In this document: positions 6,241 through 27,200 of the stretch, one piece after another
Layout: the number at the start of each line of letters is the position of its first letter
Position numbering within the stretch: position 1 is the stretch's first letter
DNA from: an uncultured Bacteroidota bacterium
GTDB lineage: Bacteria; Bacteroidota; Bacteroidia; Bacteroidales; P3
Assembly: GCA_902774845.1 (NCBI GenBank)
Contig: CACYJU010000005.1
Coordinates: forward strand, 22,050 to 86,049
Direction of reading: 5' to 3'
Length of the DNA: 64,000 nucleotides
Translations under genes and position numbers: made by a program
The notes under the pieces: model-generated
What the model was told of the DNA's origin: nothing
The model's input: only the letters and a program-made list of their open reading frames with translations
The model's database searches: none

Positions 6241-6241
6241 T

Positions 6242-8610: not shown

Positions 8611-8642
8611 CAAACATTTATAAACCTAAAATCAATACCACT

Positions 8643-9185: not shown

Positions 9186-9256
9186 GTATAACACCACAAA
9201 AATATGTCTATACAGGGTAATATTGGATGATAACTTATAACAAAACCTAATTAATC

Positions 9257-10183: not shown

Positions 10184-10744
10184 ATGTGGATATTAAAGGA
10201 ACCTTATGATGATTTTGACGAAGATAAACCTAATGGAGGAGGATGGTCCATTACTGAACATTGTTTCGGGGGAAAAGATGATATATGGTCCCAGCGTACG
10301 TGGCAACCGATAATCTATGTCATGTATGGCTATCTACATAGCTTGATGTGGCAAGATATGGACTGGATAAGAGATAACAAGGATATGGCAGACGTTTTAA
10401 AAGACATAGCATATATCAATGTCAGTAAAATGCCTGGATATACTCGTTCAACATGGACCAACATCAGTCACTGTTATTCTTTGTGGAAACCCATTCTTGA
10501 CAAACAATTTGATATATATGACCCCAATGTTATTGTTTGTGCAGGGACACTGTCATTTTTTAAAGAGGACTTTGTTAAAAGCGGTATGTTACAGATTGAT
10601 TCGGTGCAAAGTGCGATAGATGTATATAGATTGGATAAGAAGATTATAATTGACGCATATCATCCGTTACAAACGAAAATAGACAGGAGCTCATATGTGG
10701 ATTCAATTATAAAAATGCTTAACAAGTATTTTCCGAAAAGTTAA
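10184..10744 (+). CDS. UDG-superfamily-like paralog 2, apparently N-terminally truncated by an in-frame TAA
   Basis: MWILKEPYDD, IAYINVSKMPGYT, YDPNVIVCAGTLSFF, IIIDAYHPLQ. The same frame reads MKTIKEL-TAA-KLQSQVVNEIYNHARKLGLSNDDLEPITDGVCSIEGYINSSPKI from the ATG at 10028. Confidence 0.5.
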   Translation: MWILKEPYDDFDEDKPNGGGWSITEHCFGGKDDIWSQRTWQPIIYVMYGYLHSLMWQDMDWIRDNKDMADVLKDIAYINVSKMPGYTRSTWTNISHCYSLWKPILDKQFDIYDPNVIVCAGTLSFFKEDFVKSGMLQIDSVQSAIDVYRLDKKIIIDAYHPLQTKIDRSSYVDSIIKMLNKYFPKS

Positions 10745-10767
10745 TGGAATCGAAATGTTAAAATGGT

Positions 10768-11919: not shown

Positions 11920-11954
11920 AAGGCTGTGATTATTTGAAAATCCAATCTTTTGAA

Positions 11955-12038
11955 GGAGTGTCACAATCTGGCACTCCTTTTGTTTTTCTTTGCATCTTGT
12001 AACAGGAAAGCAAAACTTATTTATTTACTTAAAACTTT
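11955..12038 (+). promoter_or_regulatory. Terminator-promoter-leader module, copy 1
   Basis: Hairpin GGAGTGTCAcaatcTGGCACTCC, a T-tract TTTTGTTTTT, a TTTG box (ttctttgcatc), and the leader cttaaaactttatgattatga. It is similar to the modules at 12789 and 14121. Confidence 0.65.
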
Positions 12039-12188
12039 ATGATTATGAGAAATGTATTGCTTACGGGATTGTATTGGTTCTCCAGATTGCTCGGCGGAGA
12101 TTCGCCCATCCGTCTCACTCCGAGAAAAGTACCTGTGGAAAATCATGCCCAGAACCGGAATATGACAAAGCGAAATGAAAAATTCTGA
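12039..12188 (+). pseudogene. N-terminal remnant of a paralog of the 14200 gene
   Basis: MIMRNVLLTGLYWFSRLLGGDSPIRLTPRKV parallels MIMKNVLIAGFEMFLKKLMGIPPIRLNPRAV, then diverges and stops after 49 codons. Confidence 0.6.
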
Positions 12189-12530
12189 AACGAACCAATG
12201 AAACATACAATTATGAATATCGAAAGCATAAAACCAGAATGAACCACAAGAAGAAAACTTTGATATTTTGTGCAATGGCTTGCTTTGTTGCACTATTGGT
12301 TGTGGTTATCTGTCTGAATGCCGAATCACGATGGGTACGGATTCCGTTTGTATGACAAACAATCCGTCACCCGCCTAAGCGATCTCCACACCTGCTGAAT
12401 TTTGCACCGAATTTGACTAAAAAATGACAAAAAAAACAGTAAAAAATCGATGATTTTGGGGCGAGAAAGGGGATGCAGCATGGAAGCCTATAAATTTACA
12501 CACCTATAAACCAACCTGTTATCCTTTCGG

Positions 12531-12606
12531 CCGTTACACCGTTGCACCGTTGCAGTTCGTTTTTCATATAGGGGGATTTTCACTTGGAACTGCAACGGTG
12601 CAACGG
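12531..12606. repeat. Perfect 20-bp inverted repeat built from CCGTTGCA 8-mers (three forward, two reverse)
   Basis: Left side is ccgttaca ccgttgca ccgttgca gttc (12531-12558). A 28-nt spacer follows. Right side is gaac tgcaacgg tgcaacgg (12587-12606). Confidence 0.9.
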
Positions 12607-12788
12607 CAAAAATGCCCTGATTCGTAATCATCTGATTACCAATGGATGTTAAATTCCGTGTGTTGTGGGAGTTGACTGGGAGTTAGTACGGAGTTGGTAC
12701 GGAGCTAAACGAATTTTGAATTCCTAATTTTGAATTATGAATATAGACGGGGACTTTTTCAAGTTGAAAGTTGATTTTTTTTGTGGGA

Positions 12789-12857
12789 GTGTCACGATGT
12801 GGCACACCTTTTGTTTTTCTTTGCAACTTGAAAAAACAAACAAAACGTTTATGCATT
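12789..12857 (+). promoter_or_regulatory. Terminator-promoter-leader module, copy 2
   Basis: GTGTCACgatGTGGCAC hairpin, ACCTTTTGTTTTT, ctttgcaacttgaaaaaacaaac. It lies directly upstream of the ATG at 12858. Confidence 0.65.
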
Positions 12858-14099
12858 ATGAGAAATAAGGGATTAATGCCGAAGCAAGTGGACACTTCGA
12901 TGATTAAGGACTGTATTGGAGTAAAAGAAGGGGTTGATGAGGATGAAATACGTAAAGGGGAATCGCATATACTGGAGACGCTAAATGCTTACGGAATAGG
13001 GGTTGAACGGATAACCGCAGAGCTGCGACTCAGCGTGATTTATTATGAGGTGTTCCCGTCGAAGGATTTTGGCTTTCTGGAATTGAAAAAACATTTGTAT
13101 GATTTTTCCGTTTCGCTTGGCTCGATATACGCACGAATATTAGTGCCTGTTCCTGGCAAGGTGGCGATAGGAATAGAGTTTCCCAGAACTAATCCGCAGT
13201 TGGTCTCGGCTAAAGAGGTCTTCGATAGCGAGGCTTTTAGGGGGAGTGATGCAATCTTGCCCGTTGTTTTCGGGAAAACAGATTTGAACCAATACTATGT
13301 GTCGGACCTTACGAGAATGCATCATATTCTGATTGCAGGAGCCACCGGGATGGGTAAAACCATGTGCCTGAAGTCGATGATAGTTGGCTTGTTGTACAAG
13401 AAACGGAGTCCTGAGTTAAAACTGGTATTAATCGACACCAAGAGAGTGGAATTCAATGTATTTACGTCCCTTGATACAACTTTCTTTGCCAAAGAAAAAA
13501 ACATTGATACCGACATTATTACTGGTACGATGCAATCAATAAGGATGATCAATGCTTTGAAAATGGAGATGGATAAAAGGTATGATCTTCTAAGAGAAAC
13601 AGGTACGAGTAATATTGAGGACTATAATGAAAAACAATTCCAAAATGGAAATGAAGAAGGATGTCACTGTTTGCCATATATCGTGGTTGTAATTGATGAA
13701 TTTGCGGACCTGATGCTTACGTCAAGAAAAGAATTGGAAGAACCCTTGGTAATGCTTGCTACATTAAGTCATAGGGTAGGTATCCATTTGATTATGTCAA
13801 CCCAACGTCCAACAACCAATATTGTGACTGGTTCGATATTGGTCAATTTCCCTATTCGGGTGGCATTTAAAATGGCAATACCATCGGAGTCAAGACGTGT
13901 TATAGGCAGAGATGATGCGGTTTGTCTGATTGGTAATGGAGATATGTTTATCTCCACGCCGTCTGACAATGAACCAATACGTTGTCAAGGGGCTTATGTG
14001 TCCGATTCCGATACTGCAAACATTGTGAGGTTCATTAATGGACAAAATGGATGTTTGGATGATGAATATTATCTGCCAATGATGGGTAAAGAGGAATGA
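12858..14099 (+). CDS. FtsK/SpoIIIE-family DNA translocase ATPase domain protein (no TM segments seen)
   Basis: Walker A IAGATGMGKT, Walker B VVVIDEFADLM, and MSTQRP. The start is set at MRNKGL after the promoter module, because the track start at 12771 runs through that module. Confidence 0.8.
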   Translation: MRNKGLMPKQVDTSMIKDCIGVKEGVDEDEIRKGESHILETLNAYGIGVERITAELRLSVIYYEVFPSKDFGFLELKKHLYDFSVSLGSIYARILVPVPGKVAIGIEFPRTNPQLVSAKEVFDSEAFRGSDAILPVVFGKTDLNQYYVSDLTRMHHILIAGATGMGKTMCLKSMIVGLLYKKRSPELKLVLIDTKRVEFNVFTSLDTTFFAKEKNIDTDIITGTMQSIRMINALKMEMDKRYDLLRETGTSNIEDYNEKQFQNGNEEGCHCLPYIVVVIDEFADLMLTSRKELEEPLVMLATLSHRVGIHLIMSTQRPTTNIVTGSILVNFPIRVAFKMAIPSESRRVIGRDDAVCLIGNGDMFISTPSDNEPIRCQGAYVSDSDTANIVRFINGQNGCLDDEYYLPMMGKEE

Positions 14100-14120
14100 G
14101 TCGTGTGTGTGTTTCGACAT

Positions 14121-14199
14121 GTGTCACGATGTGGCACACCGTTTTTGTTTCTTTGCAACTTGAAAGAACAAACAAACTTAATTATTCACTTAAAACTTA
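14121..14199 (+). promoter_or_regulatory. Terminator-promoter-leader module, copy 3
   Basis: GTGTCACgatGTGGCACAC, CGTTTTTGTTT, ctttgcaacttgaaagaacaaac, and the leader cttaaaacttaatgattatga. Confidence 0.65.
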
Positions 14200-15243
14200 A
14201 TGATTATGAAAAATGTATTGATTGCAGGATTTGAAATGTTTCTCAAGAAGTTGATGGGAATTCCACCGATAAGGCTCAATCCGAGGGCGGTGGTAGTGAC
14301 GGCATGCCTCGCTTTTATGGTTGCAACTCCAGTGGCGGCGCAGAAGACGGTGCGCTACGAGGGCGTGATGATAATGCCAGGAGATCTGGATCAGATGCGG
14401 CAGTTGATGTCGGTGTCTGTCGGTGACAGAGGGGATGGGTACTATGATTATTATGAGAACGCAGACGGTGACAGGGTGAAGCACGGGAAGTTCTTATTTA
14501 TACATAAGTACTCGGCATCGGTCTGGCAAGTACTGTATGGGCAGTATAAGGATGGCAAAAAGACAGGAGTGTGGGTGGTTAAGGACTCGATAGTGACAAA
14601 AGAGCGAATCAAGAAATATGCACTCTATGATGTCCGCGCTACCTATGAGAACGACTTGCTGAATGGGGCTTTTAAGTGCAAGAGATGCAAGTCAGGCAGC
14701 TTTTATATTCTGGAATGTAACTTCGTGAACGGACGTATGATTGGGGATGCAACATTCTCGTATGTTCCCAACGTGTCGTATGAGGTGAAGGCATCGACGT
14801 TGCAGGGCAAGATGGATGAGGCAGGACTGCCGACGGGAGTCTGGACGATGACTGACAAAATTGACGTGGAGGTGATACAGAAGAGGGTGTATGTGCAGGG
14901 AGCGTGCATCTATGTGGAGGAGAGGAACCAAGCTACGGGAGAACGGTATTCGTTATTTGGTGTATTCCCGGACATGAAAAAAGTGTCGGATGCGGATAAT
15001 GTAAAAGTGCTGGAAGAGAGTATTGAATATAATGGACAGGTGGCGAAAAAAGTAAAAGGGTTGAACCGGTCACCGGACGGGTGGTCAAATAGAATCTATC
15101 AGACGCAGGCGAACCAGGCTTCTATAGGAAAATATGAGATTGGGAAGCTGCTGGAGGATGTGCTTCCCAGTGGGTGGCGAGACGAGGAAGATGAACTGGG
15201 CAAGCAGATGAAGGATTGGGAGTGGCACTATGCGGTTGAGTAA
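14200..15243 (+). CDS. Secreted hypothetical protein, possibly MORN-variant/YwqK-like repeats
   Basis: N-terminal hydrophobic segment ending PVAAQ. Repeated G-x-W/G-K motifs: GKKTGVWVVKD, GLPTGVWTM, NGRMIGDATF. Confidence 0.4.
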   Translation: MIMKNVLIAGFEMFLKKLMGIPPIRLNPRAVVVTACLAFMVATPVAAQKTVRYEGVMIMPGDLDQMRQLMSVSVGDRGDGYYDYYENADGDRVKHGKFLFIHKYSASVWQVLYGQYKDGKKTGVWVVKDSIVTKERIKKYALYDVRATYENDLLNGAFKCKRCKSGSFYILECNFVNGRMIGDATFSYVPNVSYEVKASTLQGKMDEAGLPTGVWTMTDKIDVEVIQKRVYVQGACIYVEERNQATGERYSLFGVFPDMKKVSDADNVKVLEESIEYNGQVAKKVKGLNRSPDGWSNRIYQTQANQASIGKYEIGKLLEDVLPSGWRDEEDELGKQMKDWEWHYAVE

Positions 15244-15295
15244 TAGGAGCGTGCTTGCACAATGAAAATGTAAAATATTATTCATCTAGAACTTA

Positions 15296-15523
15296 ATGAT
15301 TATGAGTAAAGTATTCAGAATTACACCCAAGGCGGTGCGCAGGGTTAACGGAACGGTGCTGACACCGGAAATGACGGTTGTGGTCACGACCAAACAACAC
15401 ACATTAGACCCCTTCTATAATGGGGCTGAGGAGGTGCAGGAGGCGTACATGCGGATGTACGGATTCGACTACAAGAAGGCCGGCTGCTGCAAAAGCTACT
15501 TCACGTTTGAGAGGCTTGATTAA
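15296..15523 (+). CDS. Small hypothetical protein (75 aa)
   Basis: ORF preceded by the same leader (gaacttaatgattatga). I recall similar small proteins on Bacteroidales conjugative elements, but I cannot verify this here. Confidence 0.45.
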   Translation: MIMSKVFRITPKAVRRVNGTVLTPEMTVVVTTKQHTLDPFYNGAEEVQEAYMRMYGFDYKKAGCCKSYFTFERLD

Positions 15524-15598
15524 GGGGAATATGGATGAGTTAAACCACTCTGCACAGAAAGTGCAGAGTGGTTCTCTTGGAGAAAAAAGACCAAAGAC

Positions 15599-15862
15599 AT
15601 GGGAACGCTGTATAAATTAAGATGCCCGATATGTGGCCAAGAGTTTGAATGGCATGAGGGGCCTGGGATGCTTACGGAAGTGCTGCATTGCGACAAATGT
15701 GGCAAGGAGATGTGGACAAAGGAGCCGCTGATGGAGTTTGAGCACATACAATGTGCCTGCGGAGGAACCTTCGACAAGGAGGTGCCCTTCATCTGCCCCA
15801 AGTGTGGAAGGGAACTGGAGCATCCAAGGGATTGCGTGTTGGAAGTGAGATGTTGGGATTGA
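15599..15862 (+). CDS. Zinc-ribbon protein (multiple CxxC pairs)
   Basis: CPICG ... CDKCG ... CACGG ... CPKCG. Confidence 0.5.
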   Translation: MGTLYKLRCPICGQEFEWHEGPGMLTEVLHCDKCGKEMWTKEPLMEFEHIQCACGGTFDKEVPFICPKCGRELEHPRDCVLEVRCWD

Positions 15863-15881
15863 AGGAGAATTGAAAAATAGG

Positions 15882-15889
15882 TATCTTTG
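15882..15889 (+). promoter_or_regulatory. -7 promoter box TAtcTTTG
   Basis: ggTATCTTTGcagattagaactta. The next substantial ORF starts at 16053, which implies a long leader. Confidence 0.45.
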
Positions 15890-16052
15890 CAGATTAGAAC
15901 TTACCTTAAAGTATAATGCAAAGGACCACATAGATGAATCCTAGAAAAGACTTTTCCCCCCTTGAAAAAATGAGAAAATGGTAAATGTCCAAGCGCTATT
16001 ATGTCGTAATTGGACAATGCAATAGTATGAGGATTATGGCGTTATAGGTAAT

Positions 16053-17054
16053 ATGGAGAATATCAACGACAAGATAGTCATTTATCAGACGGAGGATGGG
16101 CAGACCGCTATTGATGTGCGGTTGGAACAGGAAACGGTTTGGCTGACAGCCAACCAAATGGCCTTCCTTTTTGACAGAGATGATAAAACAATTAGAAAGC
16201 ACATTGACAATGCAATAAAGGAGGAATTGTCCGATTCAGTGGTTGTCGCAAAATTTGCGACAACCACTCCGCATGGTGCCATTGAAGGCAAAACACAAAC
16301 ACGTTTGGTCAATTACTACAACCTCGATGTCATTATTTCTGTGGGTTATCGGGTTAAGTCTAAAAGAGGTGTGGATTTTAGACGTTGGGCAAACCGCGTG
16401 TTGAAGGATTATCTCGTCAAAGGATACGCCATTAACGAGAAACTGCGCAAGGAACAGATAGGTGAGCTGCGCCAGCTGGTGGGGATGCTGGGGCGTACAC
16501 TTCAGAGCCAACCGCTGCTTTCGAACGATGAGACCACTGCGCTGTTCGATGTGGTGACCGATTACACATACGCCCTCGACACTCTCGACAGCTACGACTA
16601 CCAGCGGTTGACCGTGAACGGTACCACTAACGAGGCTGCTTTTCATGCCACCTACGAAAACGCTGTGCAAGCCATAAACTCGCTGAAGGAACGCTTCGGC
16701 GAAAGTAGCTTGTTCGGAAACGAGAAAGATGATTCGTTCAAAAGTTCAATCGGGCAGATATACCAGACGTTCGACGGCGCAGAGCTTTATCCCAGCACCG
16801 AGGAAAAGGCAGCCATGCTACTATACCTCGTCACCAAGAACCATTCGTTCAGCGACGGCAACAAGCGTATCGCCGCCACTTTGTTCCTGTGGTTTTTGAA
16901 CAACAACCATATCCTTTATCGCGAGGACGGCAGCAAGCGCATTGCCGACAATACACTTGTCGCTCTCACGCTGATGATTGCGGAGAGTCGTCCGGAAGAG
17001 AAGGACGTCATGGTGAAAGTGGTGGTAAACTTAATAAACAAGAATAACTTATGA
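16053..17054 (+). CDS. RhuM-family N-terminal domain fused to a Fic/Doc domain (Doc-type motif)
   Basis: The N-terminus IVIYQTEDGQTAIDVRLEQETVWLTANQMAFLFDRDDKTIRKHI is typical of RhuM proteins. The C-terminal HSFSDGNKRIAA matches the Doc motif HxFx(D/N)(A/G)NKR. Confidence 0.8.
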   Translation: MENINDKIVIYQTEDGQTAIDVRLEQETVWLTANQMAFLFDRDDKTIRKHIDNAIKEELSDSVVVAKFATTTPHGAIEGKTQTRLVNYYNLDVIISVGYRVKSKRGVDFRRWANRVLKDYLVKGYAINEKLRKEQIGELRQLVGMLGRTLQSQPLLSNDETTALFDVVTDYTYALDTLDSYDYQRLTVNGTTNEAAFHATYENAVQAINSLKERFGESSLFGNEKDDSFKSSIGQIYQTFDGAELYPSTEEKAAMLLYLVTKNHSFSDGNKRIAATLFLWFLNNNHILYREDGSKRIADNTLVALTLMIAESRPEEKDVMVKVVVNLINKNNL

Positions 17055-17986
17055 ATCCATTGAAGAAATACATCTGGCTGGTGGATACTGTGATGAGGGC
17101 AGGGGAGAAGGGGGCTACTTTAAACCAGATCTCAAACGCCTACGCCTATGACGACGAGATAGGCGGCGGAGGGGAGTATAACCAGCGGTCGTTTCATAGA
17201 CACCGCAAGGAGGTGCAGGAACTGTTTGGCATCGAAATCGAGTGCTACAGTGACGGCAGTCAGTTCCGCTACCGTGTGGCCGACAGCGGCAAGGAGGGAT
17301 ATTTCCGTCGCTGGCTGCTTGACTCGATAGCCGTGAACCGCATTTTGTGGACTGCGACCATAGGGAGCGACCCGCAAAAAAGCGACAGCAAGGATGTAGC
17401 GCCATATATAGCCATCGAAGAAACGAGGTCGGAGCCGTTGCCGATAGTGCTGCAGGCGTTGAAACAGCAGCAGATGGTGCAGTTTGACTACCAGCCATAC
17501 TGGAGCAAAGAGGCTGTCCACTATTTCAACTTCCAGCCTCATGCGTTGAAGATGTTCGAGCGGAGGTGGTATCTCATAGGCCGCTATAAAGAAGAGATGC
17601 CGCATATCATACTGGCGTTGGACAGGGTCTCTGGAATGGAGCTGCAGGAAGAATCGTATGAGAGGGATCCGGATTTCGACGTGGAGGAGATGTTCCGCGA
17701 CAGCTACGGTATCATCCTTAAAGCCGACGAGGTTGCTGTGGAAGAGGTGTGGCTGAAGGTGGATCCTTATCAGGCGAACTATGTGCGGTCGTTGCCGCTG
17801 CATCACTCGCAGTTCGAGGTGAAGCAGACGGACGAGTTCTCTGTGTTTTGTATGAGGTTGCGTCCGACGTTGGATTTCATTCAGAAGCTGCTGTCGTTGG
17901 GAAGTACGGTGGAGGTGATGAAACCAGAATGGTTGAGAGATGAGATGCGGAAGGAAATAAAAAGTATGCTGGGAAAATACAAATGA
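17051..17986 (+). CDS. WYL-domain transcriptional regulator
   Basis: N-terminal wHTH-like KKYIWLVDTVMRAGEKGATLNQIS, and a literal FERRWYLIGRY. A 4-nt ATGA overlap with the upstream gene indicates an operon. Confidence 0.75.
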   Translation: MNPLKKYIWLVDTVMRAGEKGATLNQISNAYAYDDEIGGGGEYNQRSFHRHRKEVQELFGIEIECYSDGSQFRYRVADSGKEGYFRRWLLDSIAVNRILWTATIGSDPQKSDSKDVAPYIAIEETRSEPLPIVLQALKQQQMVQFDYQPYWSKEAVHYFNFQPHALKMFERRWYLIGRYKEEMPHIILALDRVSGMELQEESYERDPDFDVEEMFRDSYGIILKADEVAVEEVWLKVDPYQANYVRSLPLHHSQFEVKQTDEFSVFCMRLRPTLDFIQKLLSLGSTVEVMKPEWLRDEMRKEIKSMLGKYK

Positions 17987-18178
17987 AGTCACAAAAGAGA
18001 CAGACTAAAACACCTGCTTGATTGCGTTAAAGCGTGAGTGGTAATAAGATATGGAAATAGGTGGGAATTAAGAACTATCCTGCTCACACCTTAGCACATG
18101 CCTATATTAGCACTCTCACTTATGTAATGACCCTGTGAAATGTTAATTTTCGTGCAAGAACGAGAGCAGTGATAAATA

Positions 18179-18186
18179 TTATCTTT
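18179..18186 (+). promoter_or_regulatory. Orphan -7 promoter box TAtcTTTG
   Basis: aatatTATCTTTGccgag. No ORF longer than 17 codons follows on this strand before the terminator-like hairpin at 18546. Confidence 0.5.
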
Positions 18187-18384
18187 GCCGAGTCGTAGCC
18201 GAAAATGACACCACCCGTCGGTGGCAACTTGGGCGAAAGCGGCGTTAAAAAATCTTAATTTTGATATTTGGTAAGGTTGATGTCTTGACTTTACTATGAC
18301 TTAACTATGACTTTACCATAACGTAACGAAGGAAGAAGGAAAAATTATGATGGAGGATGTCCTGCACTGAAGGTGGTATGGGTG

Positions 18385-18528
18385 GTGTATACAAAGTGTA
18401 TAGAAGGTGTATACAAAGTGTATAGAGGGTGTATACAAAGTGTATAGAGGGTGTATACAAAGTGTATAGGGGACTGTACACAAACTGTATAGAGGACTGT
18501 ATACAAACTGTATACAAATTGTATGAAA
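18385..18528. repeat. Thirteen tandem 11-bp units (GTGTATACAAA alternating with GTGTATAGAGG, degenerating to ACTGTATACAA)
   Basis: Read directly from the sequence. The period is 11 bp (22-bp super-unit), and each unit contains a TGTATA core. Confidence 0.95.
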
Positions 18529-18545
18529 AATAATATGAATCAGTA

Positions 18546-18587
18546 ATTTATGATTAGATTTGGGTGTTTATCATAAATGCTTTTTTT
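18546..18587 (+). terminator. Weak AT-rich hairpin plus T-run
   Basis: ATTTATGAT (18546-54) pairs with ATCATAAAT (18570-78), followed by gcttttttt. Confidence 0.4.
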
Positions 18588-18634
18588 CTCACGATAAATA
18601 ACCTTCCAGTACCTTTGTAGCCGAAATCAATCGT

Positions 18635-19546
18635 TCAACTGTCTTCATACATGGAAGCCATATTCAGCAGAGTCGATTTGATTTGAGTTCTTAGAGATTT
18701 TGGTTTAAGGATTTCGACTTTGTTGTCGTAGGTGAGCAGTTCATGTATGAAATCCGGTGTGGGACGAAGAAAAAGGCGGAAAATACTATAGTCGTCGGTA
18801 GTGGTGATTTCTTCCTGACTATCGTGCAAAGGCAGCGATCGCAGATATTTGGCCGAGACGTTGTTAACCTTGAGTTCTATGATTTGCGGGGGAATCTTGG
18901 CATCAAGGAAAACACCGAAGAAACTGCCAAAGAAGTCGGTCGGGTTGAAGTTGTCTGGTAGTCCAAATGTGTCAGCTTGGAGCTTCAAGTCTGACATGCG
19001 GTCGAGGGCATATATCTTGCACTTGTCGAGAGTCTTTCCGCCGTAGAGGTACCAGCGTCGTTTGTACATCTTTAGACATACTGGCATGAAGTCATTGTAA
19101 TACAGCTCATCTTGTTTTTGGAAACGAGTGTATAGGAAGCTTATTTTGTGGTTCTGCTGTATGGCTTGAAGGCATAGTGTGAGGTTTGGCTCCGACGACG
19201 GAACCTCTTCGAGGATAATGCGGTCGCGGATTTTGTCGTTCTCCGAAAGCAGGTTGTTGAGCGAGATCGACTCAAGCAGCCATTTGCGGAATGGCGAGGT
19301 GTGGCGTATTGAGTCGTTATCGGCGATATAGTATCGATAATTGTCGCTGTGGCAAAGAATTTCTATATCAAATATTTCGGCAATATCGTGACGGTGGTTG
19401 TGGAAAGTCCGGATGTTGTATTGTCCGCCACCCGAGATAAAGTCAGATTTTGTATATTTGTTGCTGATTTCTTCAAACGTAAGTCCATATTCTCCAGCAT
19501 GTGAAAGTGTGTCAATCAGCCATATATATTTGTTTAGGATATTCAT
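18635..19546 (-). CDS. WYL-domain transcriptional regulator (paralog of 17051-17986)
   Basis: MNILNKYIWLIDTLSHAGEYGLTFEEIS parallels the 17051 protein, and YKRRWYLYGGK is present. The start is set at 19546, downstream of a minus-strand TAttTTTG box (plus-strand caaaaata at 19568-19575). Confidence 0.75.
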   Translation of the reverse strand: MNILNKYIWLIDTLSHAGEYGLTFEEISNKYTKSDFISGGGQYNIRTFHNHRHDIAEIFDIEILCHSDNYRYYIADNDSIRHTSPFRKWLLESISLNNLLSENDKIRDRIILEEVPSSEPNLTLCLQAIQQNHKISFLYTRFQKQDELYYNDFMPVCLKMYKRRWYLYGGKTLDKCKIYALDRMSDLKLQADTFGLPDNFNPTDFFGSFFGVFLDAKIPPQIIELKVNNVSAKYLRSLPLHDSQEEITTTDDYSIFRLFLRPTPDFIHELLTYDNKVEILKPKSLRTQIKSTLLNMASMYEDS

Positions 19547-19618
19547 GATAAGGAGTTTTCTTCTTTTGCAAAAATAATATTTTTCTGTGGTATGAAACAG
19601 ATTTGCACACCTCAGGTG

Positions 19619-19626
19619 TATCTTTG
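19619..19626 (+). promoter_or_regulatory. -7 promoter box TAtcTTTG for the zinc-ribbon/nuclease operon
   Basis: gtgTATCTTTGcaaaaaa lies 29 nt upstream of the ATG at 19655. It is divergent from the WYL gene promoter. Confidence 0.6.
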
Positions 19627-19654
19627 CAAAAAATTCAAAACGATTAACAAACAA

Positions 19655-19861
19655 ATGGAAAGATGCAAATGGTGTGGCCGTCCGATTCAAGGAATCGGCG
19701 TGTCCGACGGATTCATAAGCTTCAGCGGACGTTACTGCTCAGAGAAATGCAAAGAAGAACATCGTCAAAGCAAAGCCGCAAAAGGCAAATCCGGCAAATC
19801 AAGCCTAATCTGGTGGATAATAGCCGCAATAGCGCTAGCAATCCTCTTTATGGCAAAATGA
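19655..19861 (+). CDS. Small zinc-ribbon protein with a C-terminal TM helix (68 aa)
   Basis: MERCKWCGRPIQ ... YCSEKCKEEH, then SLIWWIIAAIALAILFMA. Confidence 0.55.
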   Translation: MERCKWCGRPIQGIGVSDGFISFSGRYCSEKCKEEHRQSKAAKGKSGKSSLIWWIIAAIALAILFMAK

Positions 19862-19888
19862 ATTAATAATCAATAAAATACAAGTATT

Positions 19889-20611
19889 ATGGCACAAATT
19901 GGACGTGGTTACGGTAGCGAGTTTCAGTTGTTGAGATTTATTGGACGACACAGAAATATGCTCGAAAAACTTATTTCCGAACAAATAGGTGTAACGGGAA
20001 CTTTCAATTGGCAGGATTTTGAATACGCTAATCCCGAGTCAAGCATCGCGTGTGACTCCGAACTCAAAGGATTGTCGTTTCTTAAGGGTCATCCCAAGTA
20101 TGATGAGGTATATTCTGAATATCTCAAATATAACATAAATCGATGTGACTCATGGCAGAGTTGGGACGCGGTATTTACCCTAAATGGTGTGATTTATCTC
20201 GTTGAAGCAAAGGCGTACGCAAAAGAGATAGGCCCTAAAGATAAGATGCATGGTGACAATTCCAAGGAAGCAATCAGGAAATTTATGGAGGACATGCTGC
20301 CCGATCTCCCGGTTTCGGAAAAGTGGATGCGACGTTACTATCAGTTAACTAACCGTCTTGCCACAACTGCGTTACTGCAAAAACATGGGGTAGAAGCTAA
20401 AACACTCTGCATTTACTTCGTGAATGGCTATAGGAAAAGAATCGAGGTTTCGCGTAAACTAATAGAGGTGGATAACAAGAATACATCCAAAGAAGAGTTT
20501 CAGCAAGCCATAAAAACAGAGCTATTCGAGTTGGATGTTAAAGAATCACAGGTATCAAACCTTTTAGCCCCACCGGTTTTTATAGACGCTGAACGCGACT
20601 ATTCAAAATAG
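19889..20611 (+). CDS. PD-(D/E)xK nuclease-like protein A
   Basis: WDAVFTLNGVIYLVEAKAY gives D-x12-E-x-K. AT-rich gene. Confidence 0.5.
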   Translation: MAQIGRGYGSEFQLLRFIGRHRNMLEKLISEQIGVTGTFNWQDFEYANPESSIACDSELKGLSFLKGHPKYDEVYSEYLKYNINRCDSWQSWDAVFTLNGVIYLVEAKAYAKEIGPKDKMHGDNSKEAIRKFMEDMLPDLPVSEKWMRRYYQLTNRLATTALLQKHGVEAKTLCIYFVNGYRKRIEVSRKLIEVDNKNTSKEEFQQAIKTELFELDVKESQVSNLLAPPVFIDAERDYSK

Positions 20612-20648
20612 CATTAATAAAATTATTAACCATCAAAATACAAGTGTT

Positions 20649-21371
20649 ATGGAAATATTCGCAAAAAATGAAAAAATTCAAAGTCTTGAGAATTGGAAAA
20701 ATAACATCTCCATCAGTCAGTGGAAAGAGGGTCGTAGTGCATATTCGCTTGCGAAGTATTTTATTAGTCATAAGAAAGATGCAGAAGACCTTATACAGTC
20801 GATGTTAGAATTTGTGTCGGAAAGGGAAAATAAAGAATTAAGCATTAAAGATGTTGTCGCAGAGATTGAACATGCTTCTAAATTCGATGACTATAGGAGG
20901 GATAGAATGCAGGATTTAGCCATTTACAATAATAAGGGGGGCTACTTTCCTTTTTTTATGGGCATTGAAGCTAAAGTTGATGAACCGTTTGGTGATACGA
21001 TTAAGGTTGCAAAGAAAAAAATAAAATCACCCAGAGTAGTTGACTTGATATCCAAGTATGTCCCTGGAAAAAATAGTGATGGTTATCGATATCAACTTCT
21101 GCATTACCTGGCAGGTTCCGTTTGCGAGAATTCGGATTTGATATTGATGCCTATTTTGGTGTTCAAAACGCATTTATACAGTAATATGCGTGGAAAAAAA
21201 AACAAAGAAGAATACGATAAATTCTTTGGCGAGTTAATGGATTTTAACAGAATTGAAAGCGAAGAAGATTGGAATGTTTATTATGTAGAGTTGGGTGTCA
21301 AGCATGTTTACACCTTTTACATTGAAATAAACTACGAAGATATGGATGGTAATAACAAACTTATCAAATGA
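20649..21371 (+). CDS. PD-(D/E)xK nuclease-like protein B
   Basis: QDLAIYNNKGGYFPFFMGIEAKVDE gives D-x17-E-x-K, with an upstream helix Glu (AEIEHASKFD). Confidence 0.5.
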   Translation: MEIFAKNEKIQSLENWKNNISISQWKEGRSAYSLAKYFISHKKDAEDLIQSMLEFVSERENKELSIKDVVAEIEHASKFDDYRRDRMQDLAIYNNKGGYFPFFMGIEAKVDEPFGDTIKVAKKKIKSPRVVDLISKYVPGKNSDGYRYQLLHYLAGSVCENSDLILMPILVFKTHLYSNMRGKKNKEEYDKFFGELMDFNRIESEEDWNVYYVELGVKHVYTFYIEINYEDMDGNNKLIK

Positions 21372-22273
21372 TGAACAGGGATTTTTATTACGCAGAAAGA
21401 AAACGGCAGATAGAGTATATGCGTAAATACGAATTTGCCGAAACGAATTGTATATTGTGCAGTCGCGATTGTATCAACAATCTTTACTCAAAGATTCAAG
21501 AGGATGCCATAGAATATTTTAAACGGTACGATATTGCTTGGTGGCAATGTAAAGGCGAGAACAATATCCCATCTGGACATATAGTTTCTTCTCAAATTCA
21601 TTGCCTCAACCATCTGTTTGATATCCGCACAGATAAGGATGCGGTGAAACTTATCTCAGAAAAGGCAACAAGTATGCAGTTCGACGAGATATTGCCATCT
21701 CTCATTGACAACAAAGAAAAAAATTCATATATCACGTTTGAGTTTGCATTGGATAACGATAAGCTGCTTTGTGAAAATGATAAGGGAAGGAAAAGGGGTA
21801 CGTTATGTACTTCTATTGACGTGATGATTATGGCTCGAAAGGGAGATAGAAAATGGCTGATTCCAATCGAGTGGAAATATACAGAAACTTATAAAAGGGA
21901 AGATAAGACAAATGAAACACGCGAGTCAAGGTATTCAAAATTAATAGAAACCTCGAAAAGACTCAGAATGCCAGAAGATGGCATCCCTCATTCCGTCTAT
22001 TTCATAGAGCCAAACTACGAGCTGATGCGTCAAACTCTCTTGTGCGAGCAGCTGGTGGCAAACGGCTATGCTGACGATTTCTTCCATATAAATGTGATTC
22101 CAGCTGGCAACACAGAGTTGAGAGACGCGGTAGAAAAGGAGTTTATTCCTATGCTTAAAGACGATTCGAAATTCAAAATTATCGATCCGCAGGACTTGCT
22201 TTCTCCGCTTGAGGAAAAGAATATGCACCCGGAACTGATAGAGTACCTCAAAAAAAGGTATTGGTATAGATGA
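21368..22273 (+). CDS. PD-(D/E)xK nuclease-like protein C (restriction-endonuclease-like)
   Basis: SIDVMIMARKGDRKWLIPIEWKYTE gives D-x16-E-x-K, plus an N-terminal GHIVSSQIHCLNHLF segment. A 4-nt ATGA overlap links it to the preceding gene. Confidence 0.5.
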   Translation: MMNRDFYYAERKRQIEYMRKYEFAETNCILCSRDCINNLYSKIQEDAIEYFKRYDIAWWQCKGENNIPSGHIVSSQIHCLNHLFDIRTDKDAVKLISEKATSMQFDEILPSLIDNKEKNSYITFEFALDNDKLLCENDKGRKRGTLCTSIDVMIMARKGDRKWLIPIEWKYTETYKREDKTNETRESRYSKLIETSKRLRMPEDGIPHSVYFIEPNYELMRQTLLCEQLVANGYADDFFHINVIPAGNTELRDAVEKEFIPMLKDDSKFKIIDPQDLLSPLEEKNMHPELIEYLKKRYWYR

Positions 22274-22351
22274 ACTCTGTACCTCAGTCAGCGCTAATGT
22301 GCGTTTGAGAAAGTTGAATTGTAGGTTATTTCGACATTAGGTTAGGAATTT

Positions 22352-23545
22352 ATGACAGAACAGGATTATAGAAATTATTTGATAGGACGGACATTTGAAG
22401 AGCCTGCAGGGTGGATGAATGACTTGGTTGCGTCAACTGATTGGCGGCATCGGTGGTTCGCAGCAAGGATGCGCTGCGGTTTGAATCGACTTGCGTCCGA
22501 CTCCTCTGCCGATGTGCGGGTGGAGGTCGCTTGGCAGAAATTCAGATTGGACGAATTGTCCAAAGACCCCGACCCTCGAGTCAGCTGGGCCGCAAAGCGG
22601 TGCGAGGCGATGAGCTGGGAGGAGGTGTATGATAGATACACAACCTTCGAGATGGATTATGAGGGGTTGCTCGAGTTGTTGAATAACGTCCATATCGGTG
22701 GACTTGTGAGTTCCGACGAGCGCAATCGTGCGTTCAGACGTCTGTTCGACGAAGGTTGGCCGCTCGATGGGGGTAACATGCGGATATGGATAGAAAAAAC
22801 CTGCTGCCCCGAACTGGTTTGTGCGACTCTGAAACGGGAAAAATGCAACTTGGAGAGAACGCTGATCCTGACTTCTCATAACAGAAACGGTCGGGAAATA
22901 AGGGGTGTGGTTGCGGAGCAACTCGGTTTAGAACGGAGTGAGATCACATCCTCAACCCCTGAAGATCTCAGCGTTATGCTGCTACGCAAATATGCCGACA
23001 AGGTCGGATTGAACCCGTTGTTCACCATAGTGGAGGACTCTGCCGACGATGATGAAGTGTGCAGAAAAGACCTTATCGACAGTGCGTTCGCATTGATGCT
23101 TGATCATCGTGATGCGATGGGAGATGCAAATTCTTTGTTCGACTGGATCATCGATGAGGAGGGAAACGCCTTTTGGACGAGTGGCGTAAGGGTATGCGAT
23201 ATGCTGTATTACTACAAAATCACCGACGAAACAAAGCGGCGATGGCTGATAAAAAGCAACTGCTGGATGTCGCAATGGCGTGATCGTATCGACGAAATCT
23301 ACCGTTGCGGTGATGAGTCGGAACAGGAACGCTTGGAGCGCGACCTTCTCGCCTACCGTAATCCGAGAAAAGCCGCCAACGCATTCAAAAACAGATGGTG
23401 GATAACGGATGCCTTGGATGCGATTGTCGCATGGGAACCTGAATTGGCCGATGCTCCGAAAAGCCAGCAGTTCGAAATCGTAAAATATGCGGTGGAACAA
23501 ATGAGAAAGAACGAACTTGACAACATGTTTGATATCGAACTATGA
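22352..23545 (+). CDS. Hypothetical protein with HEAT/PBS-lyase-like repeats at the N-terminus
   Basis: Repeats STDWRHRWFAA, DSSADVRVEVAW and DPDPRVSWAAK. The GC content returns to the core level here. Confidence 0.4.
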   Translation: MTEQDYRNYLIGRTFEEPAGWMNDLVASTDWRHRWFAARMRCGLNRLASDSSADVRVEVAWQKFRLDELSKDPDPRVSWAAKRCEAMSWEEVYDRYTTFEMDYEGLLELLNNVHIGGLVSSDERNRAFRRLFDEGWPLDGGNMRIWIEKTCCPELVCATLKREKCNLERTLILTSHNRNGREIRGVVAEQLGLERSEITSSTPEDLSVMLLRKYADKVGLNPLFTIVEDSADDDEVCRKDLIDSAFALMLDHRDAMGDANSLFDWIIDEEGNAFWTSGVRVCDMLYYYKITDETKRRWLIKSNCWMSQWRDRIDEIYRCGDESEQERLERDLLAYRNPRKAANAFKNRWWITDALDAIVAWEPELADAPKSQQFEIVKYAVEQMRKNELDNMFDIEL

Positions 23546-24147
23546 AGATTATTCACATATCTGACACTCACGGCAAACACCGCGACCTCGCCCCTCTGCC
23601 CGACGGCGACGTGCTGGTACACAGCGGCGACTGCTCCTTTGCGGGCAGCGACAACGAGGCACTTGATTTCCTCAACTGGTTCTGCGGCCAACCGCACAAG
23701 CACAAAGTCTTCGTTGCAGGAAACCATGATGTTGCGATGTGGGACGCAAAAATCGAAGGCCTTCCCGATAACGTGCATGTTCTCTCGGACAGCAACATCA
23801 GCATCGATGGCAAACTCTTCTACGGTGCTCCAATGCAGATGGGAGTTAAGAACGGCAAGCTTAAGGTCGTCGAGCAATACGATCTGATTCCCCGAGGCGT
23901 TGACGTTCTGATAACTCATCGACCGCCAATGGGCATTCTTGATCTCGACAGCGCTGGGCGTCATTTCGGTAGCACAAAACTATTCGAGCGAGTTTCTGAA
24001 CTGAAGCCCCAGCTGCATCTTTTCGGTCACGTCCACAGCGCGTATGGAACAACGTTGTGGAAAGACATCACCTTCGTCAACGGAAGCGTGGTTGACGACC
24101 ACTATTCCCTAATGACAAATCAACCAGTGCAAGTGATAGAAATCTAA
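23542..24147 (+). CDS. Metallophosphoesterase (calcineurin-like)
   Basis: IHISDTHGKH, HSGDCSF, AGNHD, ITHRPP, GHVH. A 4-nt overlap links it to the upstream gene. Confidence 0.8.
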   Translation: MKIIHISDTHGKHRDLAPLPDGDVLVHSGDCSFAGSDNEALDFLNWFCGQPHKHKVFVAGNHDVAMWDAKIEGLPDNVHVLSDSNISIDGKLFYGAPMQMGVKNGKLKVVEQYDLIPRGVDVLITHRPPMGILDLDSAGRHFGSTKLFERVSELKPQLHLFGHVHSAYGTTLWKDITFVNGSVVDDHYSLMTNQPVQVIEI

Positions 24148-24249
24148 TGTGTTACAATTGCTGACAAGTTGTGAATAACTTCATGTCTCACAATTGGGAT
24201 TTTTAATCTATCTTTACACTCTCAAAACATCATCAAAAAGTAGCACACT

Positions 24250-27200
24250 ATGCCGTATTTCACCCATTTACACGTTCACTCGCACTACTCGATTCTGGAC
24301 GGCATGTCCAAAATACCTGACCTTATCAAAAAATGCAAGGCTAACGGGATGTATGCTATGGCTCTCACGGACCACGGCAACATGTTTGGCATCAAGGACT
24401 TGGTGGATACTGTGAATAAGGAGAACGGTAAGGTTAAAGACAAGATAAAAGAACAGGAGGCTATCCTGCAGAACGACGGGGCCAGCACTGAAGAGAAGCA
24501 GGAGGCGGAGGCGAAGATGGAGTTGCTGAAAGAGCAGATATTCAAACCGATACTGGGGATTGAGACCTACTGTGCCCGCCGCACTCTCTACGACCACGAC
24601 AAGAACGTGACGGAGGTGAACGCCGAGAACGGAAAGGTGCGTATTGTGGACCGCAGCGGATGGCACCTGATCCTGCTGGCGAAGAACAAGCAGGGCTACA
24701 AGAACCTCTGCAAGCTGAGCTCGATAGCCTATATGGACGGCTTCTACGGCACTCCGAGGGTGGACCACAACGTGCTGGAACAATACCACGAGGGCATCAT
24801 CTGTTGCTCGGCCTGTCTGGGTGGCGAGGTGCCGCAGAAGATACTGGCGGGTGACCTGGAAGGGGCTGAACAGAGTGTGCTGTGGTTCAAGAACCTCTAC
24901 GGCGACGACTACTATATCGAGCTGCAACGCCACAAGACCGACAAGCAGGGTGCTGCCACCGACACCTACGAGAAGCAGGTGAGGGTGAACGAGGTGCTTA
25001 TTGGGCTGGCGAGGAAACACAACATCAAGATCGTGGCTACCAATGACGTGCACTTCGTGGAGGAGTCGCACGGCGACGCTCACGACCACCTGATTTGCAT
25101 CAGCACACAGTCGGACTTCAACGACCCGAACCGCATGCGATACACCAAGCAGGAGTGGCTGAAGAGCCCTGATGAGATGGCTGCCATCTTCGACGACCTG
25201 CCGGAGGCGCTGGAGAACACGCGTGAGGTGGTGGACAAGGTGGAGGTCTATAGTATCGACTCTGACCCGCTGATGCCCATGTTCGACATACCTGAGAGTT
25301 TCGGAACGGAGTTGCAGTGGCGTGAACGCTTCACGGAGGAGGACCTCTTCAACGAGTTCACCCAGAACGAGAAGCACGAGGTGGTGATGTCGCAGGAGGC
25401 GGCGGAGAAGAAGATAAAGAAGCTGGGCGGCTACGAGAAGCTGTACCGCATCAAGTTTGAGGCCGACTACCTGGAGAAGCTGGTGTGGGACGGCGCTCAC
25501 ATGCGCTACGGCGAAAACCTGACGGACGAGCAGAAGGAGCGCATCATCTTCGAGCTGCACACCATCAAGACGATGGGATTTCCGGGATACTTCCTCATAG
25601 TGAGCGACTACATACGTGCCGCCCGCGAGGAGCTGGGTGTGAGCGTGGGACCGGGACGTGGCAGCGCCGCCGGTAGCGTGGTGGCCTACTGTCTGAAGAT
25701 CACCGACGTTGACCCGCTGAAATACGACCTCCTGTTTGAGCGTTTCCTCAACCCCGACCGTATCTCGCTGCCCGATATCGACGTGGACTTCGACGACGCG
25801 GGTCGTGGTAAGGTGCTGGATTGGATTACGGAGAAATACGGCAAAGAGAAGGTGGCTCATATCATCACCTACGGCAAGATGGCCACCAAGTCGGTGATAG
25901 CCGACGTGGGACGTGTGGAGGGTGTGTCGCTGGACACGGTGAACCGCATCAAAAGCTATATCCCCGACAAATTCCCCGACGGCATGAAGGACGCAAGCGG
26001 CAAGGTGCTGGAGAAGGCTCCCAAGGTGAACCTGGAAAACTGCTACAAGTATGTGCCGGAGCTGAAAGCCATTATGGAAGGCACCTCCAACCCGATGGAC
26101 AACGAGTTGAAGTCGATGCTGGAGTATGCCGAAGAGCTGGAAGACACCAACCGCCAGATAGGCATCCACGCCTGTGGCGTGATCATAGGTGCAGATGACC
26201 TGACGAAGTTCGCTCCGATATGCACCATCAAGGACAAAGACACTGGGCAGGATGTGGTGGTGACTCAATATGACGGTCATGTGGTGGAGAACGTGGGTCT
26301 TATCAAGATGGACTTCCTCGGGCTCAAGAACCTGACCATCATCAAGGACGCCCTCGCCAACATCAAACGGCGCCACGGGATTGATATAGACATCGACCAC
26401 ATTCCTATCGACGACGAGAAGACCTATAAGCTCTTCAGTGAGGGCAACACCGTAGGCACGTTCCAATTTGAGTCGCCCGGAATGCAGAAATACCTGCGTG
26501 AGCTGGAGCCTCATGTCTTTGAGGACCTTATCGCTATGAACGCTCTCTACCGTCCGGGCCCGATGGACTATATCCCCGACTTCATCGAGCGCAAGCAGGG
26601 CCGCAAGCCTATCACCTATGACATACCCTGCATGGAGAAGTACCTGAAGGACACCTACGGCATCACGGTCTATCAGGAGCAGGTCATGCTACTGAGTCGC
26701 CAGCTGGCGGGTTTCACGAGGGGTCAGAGCGACACCCTGCGCAAGGCGATGGGTAAGAAGCAGATTGACAAGATGAACGAGCTGGAACAGCTCTTCTACG
26801 AGGGGGGTGAGAAGAACGGTCATCCGCACGAAGTGCTGCATAAGATCTGGGAGGACTGGAAGAAATTCGCCGCCTACGCCTTCAATAAATCGCACGCCAC
26901 CTGCTACTCGTGGGTGGCCTACCAGACGGCTTACCTGAAAGCCAACTACCCGGCTGAATATATGGCTGCGGTGCTGACCAGCGGTCAGGACGATATAACC
27001 CGCACCACTCAGATAATCGAGGACTGCCGCAAGCATGGGATAGACGTGCTGCTGCCGTCGGTGAACGAGTCGGAGAAGAACTTCGCCGTGAACAGCAACG
27101 GACAGATAAGGTTCGGCCTGCAGGCCATCTCAGGTATGGGTGAGGCCGCCGCGGAGGTGATCATAAAAGAGAGAGAAGAGAACGGTCCTTATGTCGACAT

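Follow-up and report, generated by a model that had tools for sequence, protein, structure and literature searches.

We have analysed a stretch of 64,000 nucleotides, called here the window (GenBank assembly GCA_902774845.1, contig CACYJU010000005.1, positions 22,050-86,049), from the metagenome-assembled genome of an uncultured gut/rumen Bacteroidales, and in it an operon that lies divergent from a gene for a WYL-domain regulator and directly upstream of dnaE (Table 1). Besides a mini-protein with four cysteines, this operon encodes three nuclease-like proteins, which we refer to as ORF3 (ORF, open reading frame), ORF4 or DUF6946, and ORF5 or REase-ARP (REase, restriction endonuclease). The explanation that we favour, giving it slightly better than an even chance, is that of a defence-island operon in which a WYL-controlled platform drives a variable stack of independently mobile nuclease effector genes. 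The three nuclease genes (ORF3, DUF6946 and REase-ARP) would then be independent, swappable modules rather than one fixed system, and the stack would end with an optional orphan gene (U397) and a small calcineurin-like phosphoesterase. What could be demonstrated, as described below, are the gene content, the homologies, the conserved catalytic residues, the predicted folds, the recurrent pairing of each nuclease family with WYL genes and the swapping of cassettes at gene boundaries.

Exchange of genes behind a conserved promoter

The variability of the cargo can be seen by comparing the window with contigs of close relatives (loci fetched for comparison carry L numbers), the homologous tracts of which are given in Table 1. 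In L095, 883 bp replace the mini-protein, ORF3 and DUF6946, and a gene of another family (X, see below) is fused in frame to REase-ARP after the same promoter. In L014 the mini-protein is retained and X stands in place of both ORF3 and DUF6946. The contigs L009-L011 have kept the four genes in the same order and lack U397; they carry an extra REase-ARP gene between two WYL genes, and their DUF6946 and REase-ARP genes are 178 nt apart. The promoter region is alike up to ca. 19643 in L095, L014 and L010 despite the differing downstream genes, both promoter boxes are kept in four related contigs, and the WYL protein itself is 79-98% identical in L010, L095 and L014. Breakpoints that fall at gene boundaries, together with the conserved promoter, point therefore to a hotspot with exchangeable cargo behind a single WYL/promoter platform.

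The location of these modules appears to be conserved too. ORF3 or REase-ARP modules are found directly upstream of dnaE in L030, L124, L095, L014, L010 and the window, even where the DnaE protein is only 45-50% identical to that of the window, so that the site looks like a conserved insertion hotspot. In L010 there is also a 92-bp copy (2468-2558, 87% identity) of the 5' end of dnaE (window 24209-24299). Within the operon, the same 14-nt string, AAAATACAAGT(A/G)TT, abuts the ATG of ORF3 (19874-19888) and that of DUF6946 (20634-20648). It was considered as a general recombination site and rejected, as no gene in the other 174 loci is preceded by it; a related sequence, ATACAAAGTGT, occurs in a 22-nt tandem repeat upstream of the operon.

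Association with WYL regulators across species

The second line of evidence is the distribution of the same families in other organisms. We found 180 homologues of ORF3, and its census comprised 77 loci, each from a different GTDB species, of which 51 had at least 1.5 kb on both sides; most are from Bacteroidales, with some from Treponema, Anaerolineales, Alphaproteobacteria, Alicyclobacillus and others. The corresponding sample for REase-ARP was of 80 metagenome loci, 25 of them well flanked. A WYL gene was present within 3 kb of ORF3 in 15 of the 51 well-flanked loci (directly adjacent in 10), and a phosphoesterase within the same distance in 4; the order WYL-ORF3-phosphoesterase of L001 is typical. 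Among the 25 loci of REase-ARP, 12 had a WYL gene within 3 kb and 4 a phosphoesterase, as in L017 (WYL-X-REase-ARP-phosphoesterase). DUF6946 is found in similar company, with a WYL gene directly upstream in L175 and L188, separated from it by a gene for a 547-aa protein in L186, and divergent in L177 and L182, where other genes, DUF6946 and then a phosphoesterase follow. In L046 the order is ORF3-WYL-DUF6946, and L012 has DUF6946 with no recognised WYL, phosphoesterase or second nuclease gene nearby. In other words, what is found again and again is a WYL gene beside at least one of these nucleases; a phosphoesterase may or may not be included.

The three nucleases are seldom neighbours of each other. 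Within 3 kb of ORF3 there was DUF6946 in 2/51 loci and REase-ARP in 0/51, neither ORF3 nor DUF6946 was near REase-ARP in any of the 25 well-flanked loci, and REase-ARP was detected within ca. 4 kb of DUF6946 in L175 and L178. The original prediction, made from the DNA sequence, had joined the mini-protein and the three nucleases into one system. Given the absence of linkage between ORF3 and REase-ARP and the swapping of genes between strains, this part of it is largely refuted: one fixed three-nuclease system is not supported because the genes are not co-conserved. The four-gene order does exist outside the window, in L009-L011, but these are close relatives, and across species the order is not kept.

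The WYL proteins that accompany the three nuclease families are also related among themselves. That of the window is 33-41% identical, over the full length of ca. 300 aa, to those beside relatives of ORF3, DUF6946 and REase-ARP, and by sequence the WYLs of all three settings are one ~300-aa family. Along similar lines, a homologue of the phosphoesterase follows relatives of ORF3, DUF6946 or REase-ARP in many other loci. In the literature searched we found no description of WYL-nuclease-phosphoesterase modules in Bacteroidales.

The nuclease-like proteins

The three proteins had been singled out by a D-x(12-17)-E-x-K signature characteristic of PD-(D/E)xK nucleases. As a bare motif this is not above chance: of the 43 genes in the window that encode 200 aa or more, 21 have it, and it also appears in 42-62% of shuffled versions of the three proteins. 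However, the residues originally quoted turned out to be exactly those that are invariant when some 50 homologues of each protein are aligned. We regard membership of the PD-(D/E)xK group as firm for ORF5; for ORF4 it is reasonable and for ORF3 plausible, so that the prediction of three such nucleases holds clearly for one of them, and for the other two the motif and the topology fit, with a weaker similarity to recognised members.

ORF5 matched the Pfam family REase-ARP (PF22558) over positions 6-270 of 270 (3.3e-42, 145.4 bits, cut-off 27) and PDDEXK_13 (5.9e-15), and all of its 48 aligned homologues share D151, E168 and K170. On these sequence matches, it is a true restriction-endonuclease-fold protein. 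No sequence relatives with solved structures were found for REase-ARP, and no mention of REase-ARP, PF22558 or PDDEXK_13 was found in the literature searched. ORF4 was assigned to Pfam DUF6946 (PF22187; 7.9e-18, 65.1 bits, cut-off 27), as were all 51 of its aligned homologues, in which D89, E107 and K109 are invariant together with E74 and Q149. PDDEXK_4 was matched by 9 of these 51 (best E 2.1e-6) and HamA by a single DUF6946 member. DUF6946 originated from "dark" AlphaFold clusters as a family of no known function; apart from this recent origin and one entry in a toxin-antitoxin table we found nothing on it in the literature searched, and it has no sequence relatives with solved structures.

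ORF3 had no family match in Pfam, NCBIfam, PHROG or PADLOC. In 48 aligned homologues D93, E106 and K108 are invariant, along with E11 and Q152. Some of these relatives gave matches to nuclease families, all of them below threshold: NERD in 6 of the 48 family members, and also ArenaCapSnatch (arenavirus cap-snatching) and MutH. Among sequence relatives with solved structures there were only implausible weak matches. The AlphaFold models of ORF3 and ORF4 (predicted local distance difference test, pLDDT, of 92 and 91) place the D/E/K residues at or in consecutive strands of an alpha-beta-beta-beta-alpha-beta core; in ORF3, D93 is just before the strand 94-98 and E106 and K108 are inside the strand 101-108. 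When the models were compared with known structures by Foldseek, for ORF3 the top three matches in the PDB were McrC (E 1.5e-3 to 3.2e-3, best probability 0.82), with low template-modelling (TM) scores, and for ORF4 nothing significant was found. The three genes were also considered as recent paralogues, which can be ruled out, as pairwise profile-profile comparisons gave a probability of mutual homology of at most 0.2%.

The family X that replaces some of these genes in L095 and L014 is unnamed, has ca. 270-310 aa and carries its own E..Q / D / E-x-K signature (examples are L095 at ca. 6118-7000, L017 at 5192-6004, L109 and L115). It is directly 5' of REase-ARP in 36 of the 56 loci with enough upstream sequence, the two usually overlapping by 4 nt, and 16 loci have both in a single fused ORF. 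Pfam gave no significant match for X, with Hjc and AHJR-like appearing below threshold only, and no similarity was found that would make it a relative of ORF3, DUF6946 or REase-ARP. In about 23 loci a HAD_SAK_2 "RNA repair" phosphatase precedes the X-REase-ARP pair.

Extent of the operon, promoter and accompanying genes

All sequence features of the original prediction were found, with a correction to one start codon. The minus-strand WYL gene has its ORF and matches in Pfam to WYL (1.9e-9) and WCX (1.2e-7), and to the PADLOC WYL model (1.1e-26). Its start is the in-frame ATG at 19546, which fits the promoter, and not one further upstream; no N-terminal helix-turn-helix was detected in it by Pfam. 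Both TAnnTTTG boxes are present in the intergenic region, TATCTTTG on the plus strand (19619-19626) and TATTTTTG on the minus strand (19576-19569), each within a TTTGCAAAAA repeat, in a region that also has a 10-nt direct repeat and a 13-nt inverted repeat. From their form, these would be Bacteroidetes-type -7 boxes, and the repeats a candidate operator of the WYL protein. The four-Cys mini-protein is there as well, as is the ATGA overlap of ORF4 and ORF5 (21368-21371, read directly in the sequence), and the AT-richness of the block against its flanks is real, with a GC content of 0.415 for ORF3, 0.343 for ORF4 and 0.392 for ORF5 and of 0.50-0.55 for U397, the phosphoesterase and dnaE. The claim that no methyltransferase, helicase or ATPase accompanies the nucleases agrees with the Pfam results, which gave no such domain, nor a GTPase, in the genes from 16053 to 24147.

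The end of the block is a different matter. It had been set at 22273, with ORF5, and the operon probably extends to 24147, taking in U397 and the phosphoesterase, because a WYL gene plus one or more nucleases, with or without a phosphoesterase, is what recurs across loci. The spacers are short (27 nt between mini-protein and ORF3, 37 nt between ORF3 and ORF4), U397 begins 78 nt past the end of ORF5, no plus-strand TAnnTTTG box is found between genes from ORF5 to the phosphoesterase, and terminators, tRNAs and RNA genes gave no signal above chance in the region.

The mini-protein has its cysteines at C4, C7, C28 and C32 (CxxC…CxxxC), followed by a hydrophobic tail of 17 residues (51-67, Kyte-Doolittle mean 2.69). 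It matched the VATC treble clef of Pfam (PF18716; 33.9 bits, cut-off 26.6, E 2.9e-8). There is no gene for a Vms1/eRF1-like release factor in its neighbourhood, and therefore it would share only the zinc-binding fold with VATC. The four cysteines and the tail are retained in L014, and in the loci examined the mini-protein is confined to close relatives of the window locus (7 matches).

U397 is present in L095 and L014, missing from L010, and its GC content (0.50) is host-like, unlike that of the nuclease genes. Among 1.84 billion cluster representatives only 2 relatives cover its full length. The N-terminal part (residues ca. 20-80) matches multi-repeat proteins, and at residues 170-233 a stretch resembles, below threshold, UvrD/PcrA motif Ia, the flanks showing no Walker A. 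An origin as a UvrD/PcrA-derived fragment was considered and is not supported, as no helicases were returned from the 1.84 billion representatives. The phosphoesterase has matches to Pfam Metallophos (2.1e-11) and to PADLOC PDC-S10 (1.2e-72, profile positions 10-213 of 223), and its metal-binding DxH, GD, GNHD, H and GHVH motifs are intact.

Table 1. Location of the features discussed; positions are those of the window unless a locus is named.
Feature	Location	Strand	Basis or remark
WYL+WCX regulator, 303 aa	18635..19546	-	Pfam; divergent from operon
Shared divergent promoter region	19547..19654	.	Sequence reading
Treble-clef four-Cys mini-protein, 68 aa, C-terminal hydrophobic tail anchor	19655..19861	+	Pfam VATC
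ORF3, PD-(D/E)xK-like, 240 aa	19889..20611	+	Family without a model
ORF4, DUF6946, PD-(D/E)xK-like, 240 aa	20649..21371	+	Pfam
ORF5, REase-ARP, 301 aa	21368..22273	+	Pfam
U397, orphan, 397 aa, optional operon member	22352..23545	+	Overlaps next gene by ATGA
Calcineurin-like metallophosphoesterase, 201 aa	23542..24147	+	Pfam Metallophos, PADLOC PDC-S10
dnaE (DNA polymerase gene)	Start 24250		Directly downstream of operon
Tracts homologous to L095	18609-19656 and 21371-26000		83-90% DNA identity
Tracts homologous to L014	18609-19663, 19647-19897, 21569-25993		80-87% DNA identity
Tracts homologous to L009-L011	16056/16314-18468 (not L011), 18609-21229, 21343-22354, 23519-26000		89-95%
DnaE-like small ORFs	L004 5039-5986; L021 6997-7554; L025 2787-3296; L027 7464-7973; L046 5261-5749; L047 10007-10564; L102 7807-8292; L154 2031-2525
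Sigma-70 region 2-only proteins	L049, L051, L054, L057		Just downstream of ORF3
Sigma-70 region 2-only protein	L175 5841-6287

Genomic surroundings

None of the four genes from the mini-protein to ORF5 matched a family of PADLOC-DB v2, which covers Shedu, Hachiman, Gabija and others, at E<=0.1. REase-ARP is already a named Pfam family. PADLOC candidates do flank the nuclease genes, the PDC-S10 phosphoesterase on one side and, upstream, PDC-S23. The latter belongs to a second WYL module (16053-17986), in which a RhuM-Fic gene (PDC-S23, 2.5e-140) overlaps by 4 nt a gene for a 311-aa WYL+WCX protein (17051..17986) that is 40% identical to the divergent WYL. The relatives in other genomes are also neighboured by HipA, type I restriction-modification and other defence-type genes. 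A phage origin of the nuclease genes was considered and discarded, as tblastn detected no homologues of ORF3, ORF4 or ORF5 in 50,697 phage records; in plasmids, ORF3 and ORF5 had one distant match each, annotated as hypothetical. Further upstream, at 4378-15243, there are genes for an AAA ATPase, DUF932 and a translocase of the FtsK/SpoIIIE type, along with several AT-rich ORFs that lack annotation, and the GC content is 0.34-0.44 over 10-14 kb of the window, which suggests that an integrated mobile element abuts the defence genes.

The two WYL genes are convergent and separated by a gene-free gap of 648 bp. In this gap there is an array (18384-18524) in which a 22-nt unit, GGTGTATACAAAGTGTATAGAG, occurs about 6 times in tandem; the unit consists of two 11-mers containing GTATAC palindromes. 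In L009/L010 the extra REase-ARP gene follows the position of the array.

ORFs resembling parts of DnaE or of sigma-70 appear in several of the related cassettes. Small intact ORFs (160-315 aa) resembling internal pieces of DNA polymerase III alpha are found inside ORF3/REase-ARP cassettes on unrelated contigs (Table 1). They correspond to residues ca. 430-530 of the window DnaE at 26-31% identity, or to residues ca. 744-881 at 39-40%, and matched Pfam DNA_pol3_alpha (4.7e-7) and DNA_pol3_finger (4.6e-26). They may be decoys or integration debris. Likewise, a pair of WYL with ORF3 or with DUF6946 is in some loci followed by a protein of ca. 100-150 aa that has only sigma-70 region 2, Sigma70_r2 is fused to some of the REase-ARP proteins (proteins P0299 and P0307 belong to the same observation), and in L188 the gene for a complete rpoD-like sigma factor comes two genes downstream of a WYL-DUF6946 pair.

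Relation to known systems

WYL regulators of the BrxR and CapW type control BREX and CBASS operons, with a repression that is expected to be relieved on infection. The locus of the window is similar in having a WYL+WCX protein of ca. 300 aa beside a defence-type operon, here in divergent orientation, but the genes that it would control are not related to those of BREX or CBASS and no helix-turn-helix was detected by Pfam. With small or stand-alone PD-(D/E)xK effectors and type IV restriction nucleases (McrC, NERD, HamA, Shedu) it has in common the predicted D…ExK REase-fold core and the lack of a cognate methyltransferase, McrC providing the best fold matches of ORF3 and HamA the single match of a DUF6946 member. 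Unlike McrBC, it has no McrB-type GTPase/AAA+ partner from 16053 to 24147, and unlike Hachiman no HamB-type helicase partner; no PADLOC model of these systems was matched and the likeness is at the level of fold or motif only. The phosphoesterase and RhuM-Fic are clear members of PDC-S10 and PDC-S23 by PADLOC, but these are single-gene candidates with no known mechanism and, to our knowledge, the definition of PDC-S10 does not include the linkage to WYL and nuclease genes that is recurrent here. The situation is also reminiscent of the P2/P4 defence hotspots, with fixed flanks (the WYL platform on one side, REase-ARP to dnaE on the other) and cargo that varies in close strains. Here, however, the site is chromosomal, beside an essential gene and not in a phage or satellite, and the swapped unit is inside an operon that shares one promoter.

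The closest parallel in outline comes from systems centred on ARG (ADP-ribosylglycohydrolase) and proposed, by computational prediction only, to counter viral ADP-ribosylation in actinobacteria, planctomycetes and proteobacteria, which combine a rhodanese-type, calcineurin-like, HD or HAD phosphatase with a WYL or Nudix regulator, chaperones and a variable REase (Iyer, Burroughs, Anantharaman and Aravind, 2022, Viruses 14:1977; PMC9503650, section 3.8). Pfam calls the family "REase associating with ARP", and we infer that its "ARP" points to this work. In common are the WYL regulator, a phosphatase (calcineurin-like here, HAD in relatives), REase-ARP, and a conserved core to which variable modules are gained or lost between close genomes. 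The differences are several: ARG is missing here and in all the related Bacteroidales loci examined, the window has no chaperones, Macro or NADAR, it adds two different PD-(D/E)xK-like genes and a tail-anchored zinc ribbon, and the host belongs to Bacteroidales and not to the phyla listed. The locus resembles the ARG-phosphatase systems in outline and is not a member of them. One nuclease-like family in it (ORF3) is unannotated; WYL-regulated nuclease modules in defence hotspots are of a known kind.

Proposed mechanism and competing explanations

By analogy with the BrxR/CapW-type WYLs, the regulator would repress both promoters through the TTTGCAAAAA-containing intergenic region until a nucleic-acid or nucleotide ligand, generated by phage infection or DNA damage, lifts the repression. 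The nucleases, with their intact D/E/K residues, would then be made and would cut invading and/or host nucleic acid. Since there is no methylase, self-protection would be by control of expression and not by modification. It is possible, although here we speculate, that the phosphoesterase resets the system, either by trimming ends or by destroying the nucleotide that induces it.

Several points weigh against this explanation. The assignment to defence is one of guilt by association, because no known defence model matches the four genes. WYL regulators also run DNA-damage responses in other phyla (PafBC, DriD), and because of this the inducer and the role could have to do with repair and not immunity. 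Fold support for ORF3 is weak (McrC at E 1.5e-3, low TM-scores), and for ORF4 the Foldseek searches against PDB and BFVD gave nothing significant, with the best REase-type matches at E ca. 0.2. The four genes are found together at ca. 89% DNA identity in L009-L011 and, as DUF6946 and REase-ARP overlap by ATGA, at least these two may be coupled in function instead of being independent modules. Finally, the fetched loci had crude ORF calls and many were short contigs, which makes the co-occurrence fractions approximate.

Some of these points have been taken into alternative explanations. That the mini-protein and the three nucleases are after all a single obligate multi-gene defence system, the membrane zinc ribbon acting as its sensor or anchor, would account for the tight spacing (27 nt, 37 nt, ATGA), the lack of a terminator above chance, the lack of a PADLOC match for any of the four genes and their identical order in L009-L011. 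But these three contigs come from close relatives and show one and the same locus (89% DNA identity), so that they are not independent evidence. Moreover, REase-ARP and DUF6946 were near ORF3 in only 0/51 and 2/51 loci, neither ORF3 nor DUF6946 was near REase-ARP (0/25), the L095 promoter drives an X::REase-ARP fusion without the other genes and L014 has the mini-protein with X, all of which makes this proposal a very doubtful one. A different dependence, between two of the genes, is the chief alternative where part of the locus is concerned, although we hold it to be unlikely. REase-ARP would be half of a two-subunit nuclease with an exchangeable second REase-fold subunit, X, a place taken here by DUF6946, and ORF3 and the mini-protein would be passengers. 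The frequency of X directly upstream (36/56) or fused (16 loci), its own E..Q / D / E-x-K signature, the position of DUF6946 where X would be, with the ATGA overlap, and REase-ARP at ca. 4 kb from DUF6946 in L175 and L178 all fit. Nevertheless, X and DUF6946 have no detectable similarity, DUF6946 is mostly found without REase-ARP (L012, L177, L182, L186, L188), and in L009-L011 a gap of 178 nt separates the two genes. A bolder version joins this to the hotspot: the platform would insert directly upstream of essential genes (dnaE in the window, L030 and L124, rpoD in L188) with its cargo recombining at gene boundaries, REase-ARP would be an obligate two-part nuclease with X or DUF6946 as the swappable part, and the small ORFs, as stand-alone copies of the thumb or finger domains of DnaE or of sigma-70 region 2, would not be integration debris but decoys or baits by which an attack of phages on the host replisome or RNA polymerase is signalled. 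We regard this as a long shot.

The remaining alternatives concern what the locus is for. It might be an ARG-less, reduced relative of the WYL/Nudix ARG-phosphatase systems, or an end-processing/RNA-repair module, with the phosphatase as the core and the REase-fold proteins directed at RNA or at nucleic acid that is ADP-ribosylated or damaged, and not simply at killing. This we also consider unlikely, if the least so of the alternatives. In its favour, ORF5 belongs to REase-ARP over its full length, the window combines this gene with WYL and a calcineurin-like phosphoesterase, HAD_SAK_2 stands ahead of X-REase-ARP in ca. 23 loci of relatives, and section 3.8 of PMC9503650 describes WYL or Nudix regulators and phosphatases (calcineurin-like and HAD among them), with a fast-evolving REase as variable effector. 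Yet ARG is missing from the 18 scanned window proteins (4378-24147) and from every Pfam-annotated related locus, it is not among the families with at least 2 members in 147 non-redundant neighbours of REase-ARP, and the operon has no chaperone, Macro or NADAR gene. Lastly, immunity might not be involved at all, if the operon were a WYL-controlled DNA-damage or repair regulon, comparable to PafBC/DriD, or served to maintain the neighbouring mobile element. The role of WYLs in DNA-damage responses of other phyla, the contact with dnaE and the DUF932 and FtsK/SpoIIIE mobile-element genes upstream could be quoted in its favour. However, near-identical strains differ in gene presence and swap cassettes, the GC is low, PADLOC defence candidates flank the locus and the neighbourhoods of the relatives are of defence type, and we find it scarcely credible.

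Implications

Under the explanation that we favour, a WYL platform with interchangeable nuclease cargo, the related strains are particularly useful because they share promoter and flanks and differ in cargo, which makes module independence, WYL control and a possible pairing of subunits all testable. The finding alone settles no long-standing question. It does indicate that the REase-ARP family is largely outside the ARG-centred context that its name suggests, its usual neighbour or fusion partner in our sample being X. Bacteroidales dominate gut and rumen communities and, if these genes protect against phages, they would add to prokaryotic immunity a widespread and experimentally untouched class centred on this group, simply built from a WYL regulator and at least one PD-(D/E)xK nuclease of an interchangeable set, in many cases with a small phosphoesterase added.

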